A stretch of DNA of 64,000 nt from a virus. The notes under the pieces are model-generated. The model was not told the DNA's origin. It made no database searches and worked only from the letters and a program-made list of their open reading frames with translations. The stretch is taken from positions 20,187 to 84,186 of IMG/VR virus record IMGVR_UViG_3300009506_000011. One strand, given 5' to 3'. Position 1 is the stretch's first letter; each line of letters starts with the position of its first letter. Positions 3,432 through 53,048 of the stretch are shown piece after piece. Position numbers and translations under genes: made by a program.

Positions 3432-3492
3432 TCCGTAGCAGGACTCGGCCTGCTAGTCAACTAGCGTTGCCCGTGAAACGCTAGCGTGCTAG
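3432..3492 (-). promoter_or_regulatory. Promoter for the tRNA-like RNA plus GCTAGCGTGCTAG box
   Basis: TTGACT(3460-3455)-N17-TACGGA; 13-mer at 3480-3492. Confidence 0.55.
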
Positions 3493-14317: not shown

Positions 14318-14385
14318 GCGGAGGGCGGCTCCGCGTGCCTCGTCAGCGCCGGCGCGACCCGGCGGACGCCTCACGGCGTTTCGGC
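14318..14385 (-). ncRNA. Type II hammerhead ribozyme with 3' hairpin
   Basis: gcc-GAAA-cgcc(gtga)ggcg-TC-cgccgg(gtcgcg)ccggcg-CTGACGA-ggc; complete core; GUC cleavage triplet. Confidence 0.9.
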
Positions 14386-14448
14386 TCTTTCGAGTGTCAC
14401 GGCTTTCGCCGGCCTATGGCATGGCACACCTCCTCTCCTGTGTCCCCC

Positions 14449-16787: not shown

Positions 16788-17014
16788 GGACCGCCTACCT
16801 GAACGTGCTGGTGTCGCCAGCTGGCCAAGCTGTCGAAGCCAACGTGAGCCGGCATCCGGCGGCGGAGCTGCCGCCGGTGCGGTACCGCACCGGCATTCAC
16901 CGGCACCGGCTGGTGTTGGTGCTGGAAGGCCGGACGCTGCTCGACGCGCACGAGGCTGCCTTGCGCGCCTGCCAATCGACCGAGCTAGCGTGGCTGCTGC
17001 CACTGCTCGGATGA
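16784..17014 (+). CDS. Hypothetical protein
   Basis: GTGA-coupled; stop abuts the hammerhead. Confidence 0.5.
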   Translation: MRTAYLNVLVSPAGQAVEANVSRHPAAELPPVRYRTGIHRHRLVLVLEGRTLLDAHEAALRACQSTELAWLLPLLG

Positions 17015-17015
17015 C

Positions 17016-17082
17016 GCCGAAACGCCGTGAGGCGTCCGCCGGTCGCGCCGGCGCTGACGAGGCACGCGGAGTCGCACTCCGC
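17016..17082 (+). ncRNA. Type II hammerhead ribozyme with 3' hairpin
   Basis: gcc-GAAA-cgcc(gtga)ggcg-TC-cgccgg(tcgcg)ccggcg-CTGACGA-ggc; predicted cleavage after C17036. Confidence 0.9.
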
Positions 17083-17106
17083 ACTCCGCCCACCGAAAGA
17101 AACACC

Positions 17107-18132
17107 ATGAAGATCCGAGTTATCGTAGACCAGAAAACCGCACTCCGAGAAGGCATCGACGCGCCGACGAGCGCCTGCCTGATCGATATCGATCCTGCCG
17201 AGCTGACGGAGGAGGAGCGCGAGGTGCTCGCGTCCCTGCTCGCGTCCAACCACGACACCACCGCGTCGACACTGCAGGCCGCGTACGGTCAGTACCGCCA
17301 TCTCGAGGTGGTGTCGCAGGACCTCGGCGGACTTCGGCGCGGCCTCGCCGATCTGATCGCCTGGCGTGACCAGGTGCAGGCCGAGTGCATCGAGAAGCGT
17401 CGCGAAGCGGACGATCGGATCGACGCCGCCATTGCAAACCCGCCGCCGCCGCGCCGGCAGCTGGTCCGGCTGTCCGGCGGCGGCGTCATCGACGCCTACA
17501 GCGAGGACGAGACCACGATGGCGCTGGAGCTGCCGAGCGCGCCGGCGCCCGGCTACCTGCCTCACGCCTCCGAGGAGGCGCAGGAGCGGCTGTCGGCCGC
17601 GCGGCGCGCTGTCGACTTGGAGGAGGCGCGGCTGCGCGAGGCTGCGCGACCGGAGCTTGAGCGGCTCGTCGCCGCTCGCGACGAGAAGCGCCGTCTCGCC
17701 GAGGAGGCGAAGCAGGCCGAGTACAACGCCGTCTACCAGCGCCTGCCGGTGATCCTGCGCGAGCGGCACAGAGCCGGCTACGCCTCTCCTGGCGAGGTCC
17801 GACTTGCCTTCCAGCAGCAGGTGCTGGCCGACACTGGCCAGGAGCTGGATCCTTGGTGCACGGCCGAAAATGCCAGCTCCGGAGAGCTGGCATGGCTGAG
17901 CAACGACGAGTTCCTCGCGCTCCAGCGCGCTCGCGCGGCTGCGCCTCCCGGCGCCACAGTGACGCCGGCGCTGATTTGGCTGAGCGAGCGGAGGCCAGCC
18001 ACCGAGGCGGAGCTCGACGACGACCTGGCCGACGAGGACGACGAGATCGAGGAGCGCATCGACGAGAGGCGCGTGTTTCTCGTGCGGTGGACGGTCGGCG
18101 GCGTGCCGATCACCGCCGTCGTGCCCATGTAG
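17107..18132 (+). CDS. Hypothetical coiled-coil protein flanked by hammerheads
   Basis: MKIRVIVDQK start; 341 aa. Confidence 0.7.
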   Translation: MKIRVIVDQKTALREGIDAPTSACLIDIDPAELTEEEREVLASLLASNHDTTASTLQAAYGQYRHLEVVSQDLGGLRRGLADLIAWRDQVQAECIEKRREADDRIDAAIANPPPPRRQLVRLSGGGVIDAYSEDETTMALELPSAPAPGYLPHASEEAQERLSAARRAVDLEEARLREAARPELERLVAARDEKRRLAEEAKQAEYNAVYQRLPVILRERHRAGYASPGEVRLAFQQQVLADTGQELDPWCTAENASSGELAWLSNDEFLALQRARAAAPPGATVTPALIWLSERRPATEAELDDDLADEDDEIEERIDERRVFLVRWTVGGVPITAVVPM

Positions 18133-18211
18133 CCGAAACGTTGCCGCGCGAGCGGCGGCGTCCACCGGTAGCACCGTGTGCCGATGATGGCAGAGCGAGG
18201 TAGCTCCTCGC
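18132..18211 (+). ncRNA. Hammerhead ribozyme variant (CCGAUGA-U core)
   Basis: gcc-GAAA, 9-bp stem III with GCGA loop, TC, stem I, CCGATGAT-ggc; covarying 3' hairpin. Confidence 0.7.
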
Positions 18212-19517: not shown

Positions 19518-20203
19518 TCTGCGCCATTTGCTACTCCCCAACTTCCTACTCCCCAACTTCCTCACTCAACCCCCTGATCGTCGCGGCCGTGCGCGAGTGC
19601 GCCACGGTCGCCGAGGCTGCCCGGTGGCAGCGCCAGAGGACAGCGACGAACCCCGAGATCGTCAGCGGCTGCAATGCCTTGTGCGAGCTGCCAGGCGCCA
19701 AGCCCGGTGACCTGGTCGAGTGCTTCGGCGATGACTGGCTGCAGACCGGCGAGCTGACTGGCGTCGACGACGTGACGCAGTACCAGTGCCGTTGGCTCAT
19801 CGAGCCGCGTCTGCTCGACGCTCGCGACCTTTTGCTGCGAGGGACCGAGCGGACGAGGGATCAGCTCCCGGAGCAGTACGGCGACGTCAGCGCCGCGTTG
19901 ACGGTCGTCACGCACGCGATCCTCAGCGGCGCACTGCATGACCGGGAGGCGGAGCTGCGCGAGGCATGGTCCGTCGTCGAGGAGGCATACCGGTGCGCCT
20001 GCCGCAGCACCGGCATGGCCAACGAGGTCATGCGTGAGCAAACTCAGCCGCGCGACGAGGTGCGCTCGGCTATGGCTGCGCTGCCCCGTTTGCAGTCGAT
20101 GTCGGCGCTGCTGGAGCGCGCGCTCAAGTGCTGCACCGCGGCGCTACGCTTGGCACTCGGCCGCTCCGACGCCGGCCAGCTCATTGCGGAGGTGGCGTCG
20201 TGA
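19514..20203 (+). CDS. Hypothetical protein
   Basis: ATGA-coupled; 15-bp tandem duplication at 19531-19560. Confidence 0.55.
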   Translation: MICAICYSPTSYSPTSSLNPLIVAAVRECATVAEAARWQRQRTATNPEIVSGCNALCELPGAKPGDLVECFGDDWLQTGELTGVDDVTQYQCRWLIEPRLLDARDLLLRGTERTRDQLPEQYGDVSAALTVVTHAILSGALHDREAELREAWSVVEEAYRCACRSTGMANEVMREQTQPRDEVRSAMAALPRLQSMSALLERALKCCTAALRLALGRSDAGQLIAEVAS

Positions 20204-21452: not shown

Positions 21453-22586
21453 CTAGCTGGCGTGCCACAGCAGCCGCGCCTGCGCCACCTCCGCTGGCGG
21501 CACCGGCCCGCCGATGTATCGGAATGACGCGGTCATCTGGGCTAAGCGGGTTTGCGTCGTTTGGTGCCGCCAGTGTATCGCGCGCCGCACCTTGCGCTCG
21601 CGCACCATCTCCCAATTTGGCGAATGCATCCGCGACGCCACCTGCGCCGGATGGGTGGGGGTCGTGCGCAGGCCGAGCCCGTTGGTCGCGGCGATGGCGC
21701 CAATCTTGTCGCTCAGCGCTGTCCCGATGCCGATCCCCTGAAAGTCTGGCAGCACGACCGTCCGGCTCGTGCGCCAGGTGTTTTTGACGTATCGGTGGGG
21801 GAATGGCATCACGCCGCAGAAGGCTGACGGGGCCCCGTCAATGAGCCCCATGAAGCACTTGGCAGACTTGTTCAGCTCGTGCGTCAGGTAGTGATGCGGA
21901 GCGAACCACGGCCAAGCCGCATGCTCGCAGCGGACGATCTCCAGCTCGATCCGGGGCCGGGGTTGAACCGACCTCCACGTCACAAGGCCGACGTGAGGCG
22001 CTGGGCGAGGCTCTAGGATCCAATCGGGCTGCAGCCACTCGACGAGGTCATCGTGGCAGGAGACTGCCACGAATCGCCGGTTTGACCGGCGCACGTGCTT
22101 TGCGACCGCAGCGCTGCCGATCTGGGCCACCTTCCGGTGGACGACGCTGGTGTACTCGTCGATTGCCACAAGCGGCCGCGGGTCGACCAGTGCTCTGGCG
22201 AGGTTGCACCGGAAGCGCTCGCCGTTGGACAGGACCCGGAACGGACGGAGCCACGCCGGCGGCGACGAGAAGCCCACAGACGACAGAGCCCTGATGACGT
22301 TGTCGATGGGCAATGCCTCATCAAACTCAGTGACCACGGCGCCGTCGCCCCAGTCGTAACCCTCGATCAGTGCATCGCCGAAGAGGTGCCGGGCAATGCT
22401 TGTCTTGCCGCAGCCGCTCGGGCCGGTAATGAGCCCGATGCTCCACGGCCTCGCGTCGAGGTCCACGTCAGCGCGAATCTCCACCACGCTTTCAGCGGCA
22501 GACGGGATGTCGTACATTCCCTCCACTTGCTTCACCCGGGCCGTTCGCTCAACGCCCGTCGCAAGCCTCAGATCAACGCGCGGCAT
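21453..22586 (-). CDS. ABC-type ATPase fused to a GNAT acetyltransferase
   Basis: Walker A GPSGCGKT, signature LSNGE, Walker B IDEY; C-terminal RTVVLPDFQGIGIG. Confidence 0.85.
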   Translation of the reverse strand: MPRVDLRLATGVERTARVKQVEGMYDIPSAAESVVEIRADVDLDARPWSIGLITGPSGCGKTSIARHLFGDALIEGYDWGDGAVVTEFDEALPIDNVIRALSSVGFSSPPAWLRPFRVLSNGERFRCNLARALVDPRPLVAIDEYTSVVHRKVAQIGSAAVAKHVRRSNRRFVAVSCHDDLVEWLQPDWILEPRPAPHVGLVTWRSVQPRPRIELEIVRCEHAAWPWFAPHHYLTHELNKSAKCFMGLIDGAPSAFCGVMPFPHRYVKNTWRTSRTVVLPDFQGIGIGTALSDKIGAIAATNGLGLRTTPTHPAQVASRMHSPNWEMVRERKVRRAIHWRHQTTQTRLAQMTASFRYIGGPVPPAEVAQARLLWHAS

Positions 22587-23191
22587 GGCCAGCCCAGCTC
22601 CTCCAGCTCGCGCAGCTTTTCGAGCTGGTCCTCTTCGCCCTCGCACTCGACGACGATCGCGAACTGCTTCTGAGCGTCGCCCTGCCTGCGTCGCTGCTTG
22701 TTTCGCTCCTGGCTCTTGTCTGGCTCAGGCTCGATCTCAAGGCTCAGCAGCTGAGCGAACTGCTCCTCCGCGAACCCCAGGTCGAGCGCGTCGCTGACGT
22801 CCAGCTCGATGGGGCGAAGCGCCTCTGCCAGCGCCTCGTCCGTCCAGCTGCCCCGGCGCGTGTAGAGCTGCACCGTCAGCCGGCGCGCCTCGGCCTCGGT
22901 GATCCCGTCGAGGTAGACCGCCGGGCCTTCGAGCAGTCCGACGTCCAGAGCGCAGGTCCAGCGCTGCTCGCCGTCGATGATGACGTTGCGCTCCTCACCC
23001 TTTTCGTCCGTGCGCCAGACGAGCAGCGCCTGCGAGCTGAGCCAGCCCTCCTTCATGAAGCCAGCCTTCATGCTCTCGCGCTCCAGCTCGGTCATGGTGT
23101 TGCCATTCCAGCCGTTGGGCCGGAGCTTCGTCAAATCAACGATCTCAGTCTTGCCGCGGACGTGCGGCTGTCGCTTGCGCTTCTTCGCCAT
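22568..23191 (-). CDS. ParB/Srx-like protein
   Basis: LRPNGWNGNTM..IIDGEQRW. Confidence 0.8.
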   Translation of the reverse strand: MAKKRKRQPHVRGKTEIVDLTKLRPNGWNGNTMTELERESMKAGFMKEGWLSSQALLVWRTDEKGEERNVIIDGEQRWTCALDVGLLEGPAVYLDGITEAEARRLTVQLYTRRGSWTDEALAEALRPIELDVSDALDLGFAEEQFAQLLSLEIEPEPDKSQERNKQRRRQGDAQKQFAIVVECEGEEDQLEKLRELEELGWPCRALI

Positions 23192-23441
23192 CTCTCCTCC
23201 GTCGAGCCATTGCTCGTACCGCCGCCAGCCGACGCTCGCGGTCGAGCTGCCAGCGGATCGGCGGATACAGCCTCGCCCATCGCTGTACCGTGCTAGCTGG
23301 CCAAGCTAGCTTTGCCATGTCGCCCCCGGCGCGGCGGATGGCGGCCATGACGAGGCGCCTCGCCGCCGCCTCCCCACGCCTCAGCCGCGCGCCGAGGGAC
23401 CGGCCGCTGTCAGCCACTGGAGCTGGCCAGGACGGCATCAT
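23145..23441 (-). CDS. Small HTH-like protein
   Basis: AIRRAGGDMAKL..STVQRW; coupled to neighbouring genes. Confidence 0.45.
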   Translation of the reverse strand: MMPSWPAPVADSGRSLGARLRRGEAAARRLVMAAIRRAGGDMAKLAWPASTVQRWARLYPPIRWQLDRERRLAAVRAMARRRRDGEEAQATAARPRQD

Positions 23442-24313
23442 GCCGCGCAGAGCCCCCACGCGACGCAGCTCGGCGTCCCCTCAAAAAACCAGTCGTGCTG
23501 CCGGCCGCCGCGGCTCGTCCGCGCCCAGCTCACCGCCTCGTCGATCGGCCGGTTGGTGCTCTTGATGTCGTCGTCGCGCCGGGCAAGCTCGGCCTTGGTC
23601 AGCTGCCGGGAGAACATCGTCGGCGGCGTCAACCCGAGGCTGTCGAAGGTCTCTCCCCGCGCCTCATAGCGAAGGCGCGCCGCCTCTTGGACGTCGGCCT
23701 CGAGCTGCCGGATCTCGTCGATGCGCGCGGGATCCAGGTCCGCTACCAGCCGGATCGCCGCCTTGCCAGAGCAGACACAGGGCCAGCAGCCGACACGCTC
23801 GGCGCCTTGCAGGTAGAGAGGGTTGGGCGCCAAACCGTGCCGGCGGTGGATCGCGATGACCTCGTCCTTCGTCCAGTCGATGATCGGCCGCCATACCTCG
23901 ACATCTCCCCACGCCAAACGACCGCGTGGCACGTCACGCTCCGGCAGCTTCGCGCGGCGGCGGGACTCCTCGCGACGCACGCCTACCGCGTTGACGACGT
24001 GATCATCAAACCGTGCCATCCAGGCCGCCATCGGCTCAAGCTTGAGTGTGCGCGTACACCATCTCATGCGGGGCGTACGGCTGGGAAACATGCCTTTCTT
24101 GCGGCACCAGTCGGCAAAGCCGCCGCCGGGCGAGCGCACCACGTCGATCTGGCCGAGCTTGTCCTGCAGCGGTCCCAGCACGTACTCGACGGTGGACGGG
24201 TGCTCCCATCCCGTGTCGGCGAAAACCCGCAGGTGCTCGATGCCTTGCTCCAGCAGGTAGAGGCACGCAGCGGCGCTGTCCTTGCCGCCGCTCACGCTCA
24301 CAATCGTGGTCAC
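23438..24313 (-). CDS. PAPS-reductase-family (CysH/DndC-like) protein
   Basis: SVSGGKDS PP-loop, FADTGWE, RWCT..LK, GVRREESRRR, NPLY..RVGCWPC. Confidence 0.9.
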   Translation of the reverse strand: MTTIVSVSGGKDSAAACLYLLEQGIEHLRVFADTGWEHPSTVEYVLGPLQDKLGQIDVVRSPGGGFADWCRKKGMFPSRTPRMRWCTRTLKLEPMAAWMARFDDHVVNAVGVRREESRRRAKLPERDVPRGRLAWGDVEVWRPIIDWTKDEVIAIHRRHGLAPNPLYLQGAERVGCWPCVCSGKAAIRLVADLDPARIDEIRQLEADVQEAARLRYEARGETFDSLGLTPPTMFSRQLTKAELARRDDDIKSTNRPIDEAVSWARTSRGGRQHDWFFEGTPSCVAWGLCAA

Positions 24314-24597
24314 TGCACCCCCGGCAGATGAAGCAGCAGCCGCAGCCAGGCCGGGGTTCGGCGCGCTTCCCGCGCCATCCGCGCTCGTCTGGCTGGACTG
24401 CTGTCCGTCAACGCCTCATGCCAGCACTGTCGCCGCCGTTGCAGCTCCTGGCGGACCTTGAAGGTAAGCCACGCTTCTAGCCACTTGAGCAGCGCGCCAG
24501 CACGCGGTCCGCGGTTTTCTAGACGCGGGCGGGAATCGAACCCGCCCCCGGGACTGGAACCCGGGGCCCGCCATCGGGCCGCGTGCTGGCGCTTCAT
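24310..24597 (-). CDS. Possible leader ORF containing the tRNA-like structure
   Basis: Leaderless ATG after the promoter; GTGA-coupled to the PAPS reductase gene. Confidence 0.35.
   Translation of the reverse strand: MKRQHAARWRAPGSSPGGGFDSRPRLENRGPRAGALLKWLEAWLTFKVRQELQRRRQCWHEALTDSSPARRARMAREARRTPAWLRLLLHLPGVQ
24523..24584 (-). ncRNA. Minimal tRNA-like four-way junction (CCA at anticodon position)
   Basis: ACGCG|GCCCG-ATGG-CGGGC|CCCGGG-TTCCAGT-CCCGGG|GGCGGG-TTCGATT-CCCGCC|CGCGT; all stems perfectly paired. Confidence 0.75.
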
Positions 24598-24632
24598 TCT
24601 GCCATGCTAGCGTGCTAGGCGGCAGACGTCAA
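24598..24632 (-). promoter_or_regulatory. Promoter overlapping a GCTAGCGTGCTAG box
   Basis: TTGACG(24632-24627)-N17-TAGCAT; 13-mer at 24606-24618. Confidence 0.7.
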
Positions 24633-24946
24633 GCCTTCCAGGCGCGGGCCGAGATCTCGCAGCTGTCGCCGCCGGGCCACACGGTGGCGGTGCCGTGGTA
24701 GGTCGCCGAGATCTGCTCGTCGCCCAGCCGGTGCGTCAGGACCAGGGTGCCGTCCACCGGGATCTCGTCTGCGCACGGCGGTCCCTCGGTGACGTCGCAG
24801 CGGACCGTGGCCGAGCCGTCGGAGTGGTCGAGTGTGACCGCCGCGTCCAGCGACAGCGCCGGCGGAAGCTCGTCTCGCCACCGACGGCGGATCTGCACCA
24901 TGGCCTCCAGCGCCAGCCAGAGCGCCACAGCGAAGGCCGATCCCAT
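24629..24946 (-). CDS. Hypothetical protein with N-terminal hydrophobic segment
   Basis: MGSAFAVALWLAL; TGATG coupling. Confidence 0.5.
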   Translation of the reverse strand: MGSAFAVALWLALEAMVQIRRRWRDELPPALSLDAAVTLDHSDGSATVRCDVTEGPPCADEIPVDGTLVLTHRLGDEQISATYHGTATVWPGGDSCEISARAWKA

Positions 24947-25680
24947 CAGGCTCTCGACCTCCGGCGGATCAGCACCTGGAGCAGCTGAAGGAGAACGGCG
25001 CCCGTCATGCAGGCGTTGATCGCGACGACCTCGGACCAGACCTCGAGCAGCGTTCTGCCGGTCGCCCACGGAAGCGCGGCGGTCGCGATCGAGCCGGCCA
25101 AGAGAGCAATCGCGCAACCGGCCGCCGGCGATGGCGCCGGCCGGCCGCTGTCAAAAAGCCAGCGGCGCAGGTAGAGCAGGGACACGAGCAGGCCGCCCAG
25201 CTCAACGGCGTAGTAGAGCGAGAGCAGGTCATCGCCTCGAAGCTCCGGGTAGGCGACGACTACGAACAGCCACAGGCCGAGTCCAGCCGCGGCGACAGAC
25301 CACCACGAATAATTTGTGATTTTGAGCCACATTGTGACAGGGTTCGGGCCACTTGTGCTCATGGTTTTCGCGGAATCATTGGAGTTGCACCGCGAATATT
25401 TCGGAGCAGAAAAGACACACACTGCCAGCGCCGGCAGCGCGAGGATCGAAGCGAGGTACAGGCCCGCTTCGCCATGGCGAGCTGCCAGCCCCCAGCCGCT
25501 GCGGACGTCGTCCGTCGGCGGCTGCGCCGCGCTCAACGCAAGCCTCAGAAGGTCGAGGACGACGACGATCCAGAGGTACCACGCCACCGGCCTGACGCGG
25601 CTGTCCCGCCGAGCGGCCGCCACAGCGGCAACGCCCGCGACGCCAGACAGCGCCAGCAGGCTGACGTGGAGCACGGTCAT
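24946..25680 (-). CDS. Multi-pass membrane protein
   Basis: About 7 hydrophobic segments. Confidence 0.7.
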   Translation of the reverse strand: MTVLHVSLLALSGVAGVAAVAAARRDSRVRPVAWYLWIVVVLDLLRLALSAAQPPTDDVRSGWGLAARHGEAGLYLASILALPALAVCVFSAPKYSRCNSNDSAKTMSTSGPNPVTMWLKITNYSWWSVAAAGLGLWLFVVVAYPELRGDDLLSLYYAVELGGLLVSLLYLRRWLFDSGRPAPSPAAGCAIALLAGSIATAALPWATGRTLLEVWSEVVAINACMTGAVLLQLLQVLIRRRSRA

Positions 25681-26230
25681 GGCTCAGCCGCGAAGCTTCC
25701 AGAGCGCCAGCGCCGCGTCCGGGTGGACGATAACGCCGGCGAAGTCGGCGGAGTCGTAGGTGACCTGGCGGCCCTCGACGTCGCACGGCAGCTGCTCGCC
25801 CCGGTGAAGCTCGGGATCCTGGTAGATGACGAGCTCACCTCCGTCGATCGTGGGCTTCCAAGGGTTGGGTGGTGTTCCTCCTGCTGGCATGACCGGAAGA
25901 TAGCCGGTCATGAGCACCGGGGCTAGCTGGCGGCCGCCTCATATCCACGAGCCGGTTCATGGGCTGATCGTCCAATTGCAGAACGGATCGAAGCGATCAC
26001 CCTTTGGGCCGCGGAAGAAGCAAAACCAGTGACCGATGCCGTGGCGGCCATAGCGCACCTTCTCGGCACGCTCGTAGCACTTGAGCGCGTCACCATCGCG
26101 CCCGAGCCGTGCGAGTCGGCTAGCCTCGCGATAAAGGCCATCGCAGCGAAATTGCTGCGTGACGATGTGCAGCTTGGTCCGCCTCCGCATCCCACTTGCC
26201 TACCACGGTCGGCTCTGCTAGTCAACTAGC

Positions 26231-51144: not shown

Positions 51145-51909
51145 ATGAGCGATGGTGACGATATCGCAGGAGAAAAAACGACAGGTATGACATTGTCTGG
51201 CAGCGAGCTGCTGCAAACCGCCCAGAACGCTGGCATCGACGTGGACAGCTACCGCGTGCCGCCGCCGGCCTTGAGGACGGTGCCGACGGACCGCCTCGAC
51301 GAGCTACGCGCTTTCGCCGCGGCGCTGGAGCAGAATGGCGACCGCACGCTGGTGACGCCCGTGGCGTGCGAGGAGCACGGCGTCTACATGACAGGTTGGG
51401 GGTGGCATGGCAGCTGTCCGCGCTGCAGCGAGCAGCCGGAGCCGCTGATGGAGCTGCTGGAGGATCCCCTGTGCTGGCCCGGCCATGGCTTCTACTGGGT
51501 GGACTGGCGCGGACCTCGCGGCCAGTGGGTTTTCGGCGAGAGCTACCCGGTCCGCCGGCAGTACTTCGCGCGCCTCGCGGAGCTGCTCCCTGACATGGAT
51601 CCCGGAGAGGTGATCTTGGAGGCTGCAGCGAAGGAGATCGAGCGACTGCGCGCAGGCACGGACAACCTCCGCCAGCTGCTCCGCCTCGCCGTGCTGCGGA
51701 TGCGTGAGGCGGCGGACCAGTGGGATCGCTGGGAGCGTGACTCCGCGCTGGCGCCGCTAGCGCTCGACCAGGAGGTGGACGACGCGATGAACGAGCTGAT
51801 CCGCGCCGTCCGCTTCCAGCTGCCCGCCGCGGACGACTTGCTGCCGGCGCGCAGTGTCGAGCTGCCGGTTCGCAAGGCACTTCCGGAGGAGGCTTGCAGG
51901 CCAGCCTAG
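51145..51909 (+). CDS. Hypothetical protein
   Basis: Protein-like ORF; start uncertain. Confidence 0.5.
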   Translation: MSDGDDIAGEKTTGMTLSGSELLQTAQNAGIDVDSYRVPPPALRTVPTDRLDELRAFAAALEQNGDRTLVTPVACEEHGVYMTGWGWHGSCPRCSEQPEPLMELLEDPLCWPGHGFYWVDWRGPRGQWVFGESYPVRRQYFARLAELLPDMDPGEVILEAAAKEIERLRAGTDNLRQLLRLAVLRMREAADQWDRWERDSALAPLALDQEVDDAMNELIRAVRFQLPAADDLLPARSVELPVRKALPEEACRPA

Positions 51910-53048
51910 CCAACGACCGGCTCGGCTCGGCCAACAGCGACCACGTGCCGCTGCCGGTGCCTACGCAGCCGCGCGAGCACCGCAACCGCCGCGTCCACCG
52001 AATCCCGCACAAGACCATCTCCGTCGCGGAGCTACGCCGCTGGCGCGAGCTGGGCATCGGCTGGGCGACCATCGCCACGAGCCGCGGCCGCCGGCTCGCT
52101 CAACCCCGTGCCTGGGTCTGGGTCGACGAGGTGGAGCCAGACGACTACCAGCTGCTCGAGGACCACCGGCCAAAGTGCCGCGCCGACTGCCGGGACAACG
52201 GTTTGCGTCCTTGCCCCTTCGTCAGCTGCCGGCACAACCTCTACCTCGACGTCTGCGAGGACGGAGCCATCGAGCTGACGCGGCCGGAGCTTGAGCCGGG
52301 CGAGATGGAGTACAGCTGCGTGCTCGACCTCGTAGACGGCCTCGTTGGCGGGCTGGACGCGAAGCGGTCCGAGGACGCGGACGGCCCCGTCTGGAGCTTC
52401 ACGCTCGAGCCCGTGGGCGTGGCGATCAACCTGACCCGGGAGCGAGCGCGTCAGATCGAGAAGGAGGCAGAGGCAAAACTGTTCGTGATGCGTGGCCTGC
52501 CCCGGCCCGAGGGTGACGAGTGGCAGGAGGAAAGGAGCGTCTGTAAGTTGGCAAGGCTACAGCTGTTTATGTCGGAAACTGGGGCGAAGGCGCAGATCGT
52601 CCACGCGCCCGGTCAAGGCACGGGTCCGCGTCTGGACATGACCTGCAGCAAGTGCGGTAAGAGCGGCACACGGTGGTTCCAGGGCTGGACGCTGCTTGAG
52701 ATCCGCGTCATGGCAGGCGTCATCTGCAGCCAGCCGTCGGAGTGCTGCGGCGCACCCATCACCAGCCGGCTGGATGGCATGCCGGCAGCGCTCAACCGGC
52801 GGTACGTCTGCCGGGACCGGGACCGGCGCACGCAGATCACCGAAGCGCTCCGGCAGGCCGGCGCTGACGGTCTCAGCCTGCGGCAGCTGTGCAAGCGGGT
52901 TCCCGGCCGCTGGGCGGAGATCGCGAAGCAGGCGAACAAGCTGGCGGCAGATCGCAAGAGCCACGTCCAGCGCCGCTCGCGAGCGCCGGGCGAGCCGGAG
53001 AGATTTTTCTGCACGTTGCCGGCAACGGCGGCAGCGCTTGCTACTTGA
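51894..53048 (+). CDS. Sigma70 region-4-like DNA-binding protein with Cys-rich domain and C-terminal wHTH
   Basis: RPCPFVSCRHNLYLD..SCVLD..TLEPVG..NLTRERARQIE..A..KL. Confidence 0.7.
   Translation: MQASLANDRLGSANSDHVPLPVPTQPREHRNRRVHRIPHKTISVAELRRWRELGIGWATIATSRGRRLAQPRAWVWVDEVEPDDYQLLEDHRPKCRADCRDNGLRPCPFVSCRHNLYLDVCEDGAIELTRPELEPGEMEYSCVLDLVDGLVGGLDAKRSEDADGPVWSFTLEPVGVAINLTRERARQIEKEAEAKLFVMRGLPRPEGDEWQEERSVCKLARLQLFMSETGAKAQIVHAPGQGTGPRLDMTCSKCGKSGTRWFQGWTLLEIRVMAGVICSQPSECCGAPITSRLDGMPAALNRRYVCRDRDRRTQITEALRQAGADGLSLRQLCKRVPGRWAEIAKQANKLAADRKSHVQRRSRAPGEPERFFCTLPATAAALAT

Follow-up and report, generated by a model that had tools for sequence, protein, structure and literature searches.

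Transfer RNA mimics are known from vertebrates (mascRNA), plant viruses, bacteria (tmRNA and YrlA) and organelles. The vertebrate, nuclear mascRNA is released from a longer transcript by RNase P and RNase Z, and this cleavage also defines where the neighbouring RNA ends. In organelle tRNA punctuation and t-elements, and in RNase P-cut bacterial operon spacers, tRNA-shaped spacers act as cleavage signals for tRNA-processing enzymes. YrlA Y RNAs (RF02553) are tRNA mimics of bacteria and phages that are recognised by tRNA enzymes (PMC4201824). A tRNA-like domain of a Y RNA is cut by RNase P and receives CCA, and Y RNAs with short acceptor stems are reported to have escaped cutting by RNase P (PMC4201824).

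Here we describe a tRNA-derived structured RNA domain, containing a cloverleaf that we call TLE1, in a lytic-type phage with direct terminal repeats. Like mascRNA of MALAT1 (RF01684), TLE1 is a cloverleaf of ~60 nt with a reduced D arm that is predicted to lie inside a longer transcript. Unlike mascRNA, it carries two loops of T type, leaves no junction base unpaired and faces competition from a 14-bp clamp, and it is a predicted fold from a phage. With the YrlA Y RNAs (PMC4201824) TLE1 shares a canonical T-arm core with a hairpin upstream and a closed hairpin after it. It departs from them in that there is no adjacent or phage-encoded Rsr, no GNCGAAN0-1G motif and no convincing D arm, and in that the YrlA model scores 21.9 against a gathering score of 69 bits.

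Genome setting and promoter-like site

The stretch analysed here (the window, 64,000 nucleotides) runs from base 20187 to base 84186 of a virus record of 84,186 bp from a marine-sediment metagenome, which has a GC content of 67%, carries direct terminal repeats and was judged complete. ARAGORN finds no tRNA or tmRNA gene in the window and none in the whole genome. RtcB and a CCA-adding enzyme are both absent from the phage genome, and a search for tyrosine integrases, with serine recombinases outside its scope, found none there. TLE1 lies on the minus strand. The first-pass annotation had correctly placed it at the head of a PAPS-reductase/ParB-like/ATPase-GNAT operon. The features of this region are:

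24632→24604, minus strand: promoter-like site TTGACG-17-TAGCAT, sigma-70-like, with a predicted start at ~24597
24584→24523, minus strand: TLE1, a 62-nt cloverleaf core, acceptor 24584–24580 with 24527–24523
24310..24597, minus strand: overlapping 95-codon frame, not supported as a gene
23438..24313, minus strand: PAPS-reductase-family PP-loop gene, most like SspD/DndC, the first gene downstream of TLE1
22568–23191, minus strand: ParB-like gene, after the PAPS-reductase gene
21453–22646, minus strand: ATPase-GNAT gene, after the ParB-like gene

The PAPS-reductase, ParB-like and ATPase-GNAT genes together seem suited to DNA modification rather than to tRNA modification. In a relative, the Logan contig protein P0005, PAPS-reductase and ParB-like sequences appear joined in one 499-aa call via an out-of-frame stretch; since they are joined in a single call, the two genes are adjacent in that relative too. 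On the other side of TLE1, genes of no assigned function stand behind a CTAGTTGACTAG promoter at 26218. A type IV-B-like module lies farther upstream (2.5 kb) and comprises csf1, csf2, csf3, a Cas6-like gene, a CysH-like second PAPS-reductase and a phosphatase-SpoU fusion.

The gap that holds TLE1 (24314–24628, 315 nt) lacks the periodic GC enrichment at third positions that is seen in the genes on either side. The 95-codon frame that overlaps it has GC fractions of 0.74/0.61/0.74 by codon position, and its product has no homologue among 5.8 billion proteins, where it is also absent as a called protein itself. The start codon of the downstream operon is 210 nt 3' of the TLE1 core.

The promoter-like site was found once, with 0.0 expected from shuffles of that 600-nt region, and its −35 hexamer adjoins the stop codon (24629–24631) that ends the gene upstream. 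The predicted start at ~24597 falls 13 nt before TLE1, in agreement with the distance given at first pass, and the clamp helix described below begins 5 nt from it. TLE1 would thus be transcribed from its own promoter-like site. A terminator-like site was not found between TLE1 and the upstream minus-strand genes, so read-through from those genes would probably be a second source of its transcription.

Structure of the TLE1 cloverleaf

Folded alone, TLE1 has a four-helix cloverleaf as its minimum free energy (MFE) structure (−41.4 kcal/mol, 60% of the ensemble, z = −2.35), and unpaired bases are confined to the three hairpin loops. The initial description of four fully paired helices without linkers therefore stands, as the MFE fold pairs every base outside the loops. 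Below the acceptor, the core consists of three hairpins:

24566..24579, minus strand: D-position mini hairpin GCCCG-AUGG-CGGGC, from the fold
24547..24565, minus strand: ‘anticodon-type’ arm with loop UUCCAGU, from the fold and from alignment to a T-arm of another phage
24528..24546, minus strand: canonical T-arm with loop UUCGAUU, from the fold

In the register first proposed, the helices are 5 + 5 + 6 + 6 bp, with loops AUGG, UUCCAGU and UUCGAUU. The junction can slide, and helices of 4/6/5/7 (the MFE register) or 6/4/7/5 bp are also possible. In every register (5+6, 4+7 or 6+5) acceptor and T-arm stack to 11 bp, and a C·C end pair is needed to reach 12. The acceptor is 5–6 bp long, with 7 bp attained only through a terminal C·C mismatch. 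Its 3' strand is followed by C-UAG and hence CCA is not encoded, which bears out the early view that a CCA end is missing. The T-arm GCGGG-UUCGAUU-CCCGC (24545–24529) meets the canonical G53–C61, U54 U55 C56 R57 A58 pattern, with a G–C closing pair, and its loop was rightly recognised as a canonical T loop.

All 22 of the 22 pairs are Watson-Crick, and the plus strand folds almost equally well (−39.6 kcal/mol). Because such pairs fold on both strands, the assignment of TLE1 to the minus strand rests solely on the orientation of the T loop and on the promoter, and the fold by itself is therefore no proof of a role at the RNA level.

Chance was assessed across the 84-kb genome, on both strands, with a descriptor that called for a T-loop hairpin, an acceptor of at least 5 bp, three hairpins and no more than 6 unpaired bases at the junction. 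TLE1, with 0 unpaired junction bases, was the one match in the real genome. In 60 dinucleotide shuffles the mean was 0.017 matches (one shuffle of the 60), and none contained a match with 3 or fewer unpaired bases. Thus the fold, the non-coding gap, the promoter-like site and the genome-wide descriptor test confirm that TLE1 is a real structure, far beyond chance.

A competing clamp fold

In a longer transcript TLE1 is part of a larger domain, the closing helix of which competes with the acceptor and was overlooked in the first-pass annotation. Two features define this fold:

24494..24592, minus strand: structured domain of ~99–100 nt, a 14-bp perfect clamp around four hairpins
24509..24528, minus strand: alternative hairpin hp4 (CCGCG, 10-nt loop, CGCGG), from the fold

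The clamp helix pairs 24592–24579 with 24507–24494 (14 bp, perfect). Once it captures the acceptor 5' strand, hp4 forms and incorporates the acceptor 3' strand. The exchange involves ACGCGG, which pairs with either of two CCGCGU copies, the two pairings excluding each other. The outer 8 bp of the clamp are compatible with the cloverleaf. In the longer transcript the clamp fold is better than the cloverleaf fold by 11 kcal/mol (−71.8 versus −60.6 kcal/mol), but in the nascent transcript the cloverleaf is the MFE structure up to about position 24506, when ~90 nt have emerged.

This arrangement bears on an explanation in which the TLE1 domain would act in cis as a leader, either stabilising the RNA from a 5' (or an intercistronic 3') position or switching between two states, and so tune the downstream operon. 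The clamp begins within 5 nt of the predicted start, the cloverleaf and the clamp with hp4 are mutually exclusive and would form in that order, and the whole 315-nt gap is unusually structured (z = −3.25), all as a leader would have it. The start codon of the operon, however, lies far downstream at the distance given above, and neither a ligand nor a factor is apparent. Canonical T loops would also be superfluous in a simple stabiliser, and the second tRNA-like RNA of this genome, TLE2 (see below), has no gene downstream to regulate. We consider a leader function unlikely on balance.

Comparison with tRNAs and curated RNA families

The first-pass annotation held that TLE1 is not a translational tRNA and expected tRNA finders and covariance models to reject it. 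Both views were borne out, as ARAGORN made no call and Rfam gave no match at gathering score. In a permissive Rfam scan of the TLE1 region, any match to the tRNA model scored below the 13.6-bit tmRNA match that was kept for the clan. Relative to a tRNA, TLE1 lacks connector nucleotides 8, 9 and 26 and a variable loop, which in tRNAs has at least 4 nt, and has zero unpaired junction bases. In a tRNA, G18-G19 of the D loop dock on the T loop; the D position of TLE1 is occupied by a 5-bp hairpin with the tetraloop AUGG, which includes GG. The acceptor/T stack has 11 bp against the 12 (7 + 5) of a tRNA. The data support the conclusion that TLE1 is not a decoding tRNA.

It had also been suggested that the loop UUCCAGU is Trp-like, which was probably a misreading. 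The ‘anticodon’ arm and the true T-arm have GGGUUC-A-UCCC in common, with 11 of 13 apical bases identical, and the same arm aligns with the T-arm of a look-alike element from another phage (G002, see below). Its loop has a C at the purine-57 position of T loops. By sequence, the arm is more likely a second, slightly off-consensus T-arm than an anticodon arm. Given this T-arm identity and the alignment to G002, TLE1 is best read as a combination of acceptor, mini hairpin and two arms of T type, in which the CCA is incidental.

Bacterial TrpRS needs a discriminator G73. In TLE1 the nucleotide that follows the acceptor is C (24522) and, if the 7-bp register is taken, U, in neither case the G73 of tRNA-Trp. 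That TLE1 is nonetheless a working, minimal, non-canonical tRNA-Trp with anticodon CCA is extremely improbable. In keeping with such a tRNA, U33 precedes the CCA and position 37 after it is a purine, and bacterial tRNA-Trp likewise has A–U as its outermost pair. These points are countered by the 11-bp stack, the missing connector and variable nucleotides, the tetraloop of the D hairpin, the discriminator and the silence of the tRNA finders, and the loop is better explained as a copy of a T loop.

Among curated families, the best match to TLE1 is mascRNA-menRNA (RF01684), which aligns over its full length with 26.3 bits (E 0.0035 in a 501-nt search; gathering score 42.5). The YrlA model (RF02553) aligns end to end to 24574–24445 with 21.9 bits (E 0.032 in a 501-nt search; gathering score 69). 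The latter match is driven by one further feature:

24473..24490, minus strand: D-arm-like motif GCUCAAGUGGCUAGAAGC, 3' of the T-arm, which needs a bulge

These observations raise the possibility, which we rate as highly improbable, that TLE1 is a YrlA-type Y RNA, that is, a permuted tRNA mimic with V, T, acceptor-like and D stem-loops that tethers the host Ro60/Rsr. Besides the end-to-end alignment, a hairpin, the T-arm, the closed hairpin and the D-like motif follow one another as in the YrlA plan (PMC4201824). In addition, the IMG/VR 104-kb csf-bearing phage L190 encodes, at 1–830, the C-terminus of an Rsr/Ro60 (TROVE) protein and then a Y-RNA-like region with GUCGAAG and a T-arm. Yet the score is far under the gathering threshold and several of the model pairs are non-canonical. 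The T-arm and the closed hairpin (hp4) of the plan are present, but the D-like motif, at 24490–24473, is bulged and not above chance: a loose D-arm descriptor matched 83 times in the genome versus 68 times in shuffles. GNCGAAN0-1G is part of the Ro-binding module of Y RNAs (PMC4201824), and a regular-expression search found this motif neither in the gap (24314–24640) nor in the TLE2 region. Finally, no TROVE/Rsr match was found in the complete phage genome, although control genomes did match.

Judged from these model scores, TLE1 would be a tRNA mimic outside every curated family and most resembles the mascRNA class in size and shape.

After its Y-RNA-like region, L190 carries a match to the tRNA model (53.4 bits) whose anticodon loop is interrupted by a 65-nt insertion, and for which ARAGORN makes no call.

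A second tRNA-like RNA, promoter motifs and hammerhead-like elements

The same genome contains a second non-canonical tRNA-like RNA:

3363→3279, minus strand: TLE2, with discriminator A (3278)

TLE2 has a 7-bp acceptor (8/4 in the MFE fold), a 7-bp hairpin at the D position, an arm of ~11 bp whose loop, CUUAGGU, resembles that of tRNA-Leu(UAG), and a T-arm with the same UUCGAUU loop as TLE1. As it contains G·U pairs, its fold is strand-specific. A CTAGTTGACTAG promoter, of the phage's own type, lies at 3453–3464. TLE2 points towards the 3' end of a tail-like gene, without an ORF downstream, and was called by no tRNA finder and by no Rfam model. MAFFT could not align TLE1 with TLE2, and a covariance model of TLE1 (R1) misses TLE2, so homology between the two is not demonstrable beyond the T-arm. 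Their joint presence in a genome without canonical tRNAs makes tRNA-like RNAs a recurring feature of this phage.

The two elements also have a promoter-proximal word in common:

24606..24618, minus strand: 13-mer CTAGCACGCTAGC (GCTAGCGTGCTAG on the plus strand), overlapping the −10 hexamer of the TLE1 promoter-like site

The window contains four identical copies of the 13-mer GCTAGCGTGCTAG, versus 0.18 expected, at 3480 (TLE2), 24606 (TLE1), 32319 (the csf operon promoter) and 53359. The CTAGTTGACTAG promoter family and other CTAG-N4-CTAG sites occur at 3453, 8085, 26218 and 40610. With CTAG-N4-CTAG present at at least 11 sites of the window, this is a general promoter or operator feature, and the 13-mer and CTAG motifs together are probably the phage's own promoter or operator code. 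The fourth 13-mer adjoins the gene for a 384-aa protein (window 51894–53048, plus strand) with a weak, sub-threshold match to sigma-70 region 4, which is a candidate for a factor reading the CTAG motifs.

Three further spacer elements match an Rfam ribozyme model:

14329–14386, minus strand: hammerhead type II-like element
17015–17071, plus strand: hammerhead type II-like element
18131–18199, plus strand: hammerhead type II-like element

Their scores of 27–31 bits (E 0.0015–0.017) are below the gathering score of 37, and all three keep the GAAA, GUC and CUGAnGA cores intact. By the ORF list used here they lie in spacers between same-strand genes, the second also overlapping the annotated start of the ORF at 16990–18132. 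Based on these three elements between genes, the phage appears to cut operon RNAs at spacer elements.

Comparative searches

A blastn search with 23400–25700 gave no match among 50,697 deposited phages. No comparable T-arm element was found within 2.5–3 kb of homologous PAPS-reductase genes at 124 loci, which comprised 44 from IMG/VR (≤49% identity, with one fragmentary 67% match) and 80 from metagenomes (mostly ≤54%). Closer homologues of the PAPS-reductase are available as proteins, P0002 and P0003 with 81% and P0004 with 71% identity, as are two of Csf2, P0122 and P0123, with 81–77%. Contigs from four DNA sequencing runs did not cover 24537–24637 of the TLE1 core region. Single-query searches with the tail-like protein adjoining TLE2 and with Csf2 each gave no viral relatives. 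When the TLE1 and TLE2 gaps were compared with all fetched loci by blastn-short and nhmmer, T-arm words were all that matched. The pattern TTCCAGT-N8-12-GGTTCGATTCC returned no TLE1 look-alike from viral contigs; nearly all of its matches were ordinary phage tRNAs, judged by eye as tRNA-Gly(UCC). The pattern GGCGG-N2-4-CCGGGTTCNAGTCCCGG returned real tRNAs, some tRNA-fragment sites and one element of interest, from phage G002.

The G002 element was likewise the sole match, and a weak one (28.6 bits, E 3.5e-4 per genome), when model R1 of the TLE1 cloverleaf was run on 27 csf2-bearing phage loci (±10 kb) and on the whole records:

L195 3835→3791, minus strand: G002 look-alike of 45 nt, in an 87-nt spacer between two same-strand genes

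Like TLE1, it has a 5-bp closing stem (CGCG plus one pair), a GC mini hairpin with a tetraloop and an arm of the form CCGGG-UUC(G/C)AGU-CCCGG. The G002 T-arm that aligns with the TLE1 ‘anticodon’ arm has the canonical loop UUCGAGU. Unlike TLE1, the element has no second T-arm and contains a 3–4-nt linker, and the phages are otherwise unrelated: G002 has in common with this phage a csf cassette, an ATPase-GNAT fragment and little more (two short matches, 32% and 37% identity). The outermost pair is A–U in TLE1 and U–A in G002, a double change that, as one pair in two sequences, is no evidence of selection.

The main rival to the reading that we prefer (see Discussion) is that TLE1, with TLE2, is a trans-acting tRNA mimic that binds tRNA-recognising proteins, an unlikely proposal that is compatible with excision. 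The RNA could be a decoy for host tRNA-targeting defences, or a substrate or scaffold of the phage's type IV-B Csf/Cas6-like/CysH-like/phosphatase-SPOUT module. Several observations point in this direction. The phage has two tRNA-like RNAs and no tRNAs, and the exact 13-mer stands at the TLE1, TLE2 and csf operon promoters as well as at one further site. The csf1–3, Cas6-like, second PAPS-reductase and SpoU genes were confirmed nearby. The G002 look-alike is ~5 kb from the csf operon of that phage and lies 3' of an ATPase-GNAT homologue encoded on its own strand. We also count in its favour that no natural RNA is known for type IV-B complexes (PMC7937560).

Other results argue in the opposite direction. 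A look-alike was present, weakly, in just 1 of the 27 csf2-bearing phage loci, and the CTAG-N4-CTAG motif is a general feature of the window. A generic T-arm plus acceptor descriptor was not enriched at csf loci either, with 2.65 matches per 100 kb versus 2.99 and 6.63 at control loci. The early suggestion that TLE1 is a substrate or guide of the Csf/Cas6/SPOUT proteins thus finds no comparative support, and on these sequences a link between TLE1 and the type IV-B Csf module is not supported. The specific conjecture that TLE1 and TLE2 are RNA partners of the array-less type IV-B module, co-regulated via the 13-mer, bound or modified, and mimicking or protecting tRNAs, is accordingly very doubtful. 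If true, they would be the first natural RNA ligand of type IV-B.

The same searches bear on whether TLE1 is a decaying relic of a tRNA gene or of a duplicated T-arm without present function, or a set of palindromes at the DNA level. Neither the viral nor the bacterial collections searched contain homologues, and all-Watson-Crick DNA palindromes fold on either strand, as a relic or palindrome would allow. A relic should have accumulated mismatches, yet all 22 pairs and the 14-bp helix are intact. The site is associated with a promoter, and there is no tyrosine integrase to explain an attachment site derived from a tRNA fragment. Decay or DNA-level palindromes therefore appear quite unlikely to account for TLE1. 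A tRNA-fragment attP as such found no support: the integrase search, which covered tyrosine integrases, was negative, the genome has direct terminal repeats, and the tandem-arm pattern gave five chance hits, without hairpins, in 185,579 species genomes.

Several other tRNA-like sequences were encountered in the fetched loci. In three viral contigs (L201 and L202, 3452–3528; L216, 3371–3447; plus strand), GGUGG-UUCGAUU-CCGCC-AGCGUCC is identical and the flanks diverge right after it; this T-arm plus acceptor fragment looks like a tRNA-fragment attachment site by its sequence. G002 also carries, at ~16433–16503 of L195 (plus strand), a D-arm-less tRNA-like gene with a 7-bp acceptor, an encoded ACCA end, a T loop UUCAACU and a long arm of anticodon type whose oversized loop includes CUUUAGA, for which ARAGORN makes no call. 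A metagenome contig (L138, 3350–4539) has, by a T-arm regular expression, at least six T-arm-bearing tRNA-like sequences directly after its homologous PAPS-reductase gene.

Discussion

We tentatively favour a reading in which TLE1 is a transcribed tRNA-mimic spacer element between genes that is handled by host tRNA-processing enzymes. As the RNA emerges, the cloverleaf would form first and offer an acceptor/T-arm stack and two T-loop hairpins, which are the features recognised by the host tRNA-maturation enzymes RNase P, RNase Z, TruB and TrmA. In a form of ‘tRNA punctuation’, host enzymes would then cut the transcript at TLE1 and so set the ends of the neighbouring mRNAs. Such cleavage could also free a small, stable tRNA-like RNA. 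The 14-bp clamp, which forms after the cloverleaf, would shield the domain or else shorten the time for cutting. The likeness to tRNA punctuation is drawn by analogy, and such punctuation in phage operons has not been described as far as we found.

This preferred reading is supported by a cloverleaf beyond chance in a non-coding gap, by the promoter-like site 13 nt upstream, by TLE2, by the hammerhead-like spacer elements and by the G002 look-alike, which also lies in a spacer. The weak mascRNA (26.3 bits) and YrlA (21.9 bits) matches appear to fit the class of tRNA mimics. Against it stand the short acceptor, a trait of the Y RNAs that RNase P did not cut, the clamp fold, which is better by 11 kcal/mol and removes the acceptor stem, and the lack of conservation upstream of the PAPS-reductase homologues.

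As far as we found, no compact cloverleaf with two T loops has been described before from the spacer of a phage operon. TLE1 represents it here as a single sequence and lies near a type IV-B Cas module of the phage. Should TLE1 be cut or bound by host tRNA enzymes, this phage would use tRNA mimicry beside hammerhead ribozymes, either to shape its transcripts or to engage tRNA-binding proteins.
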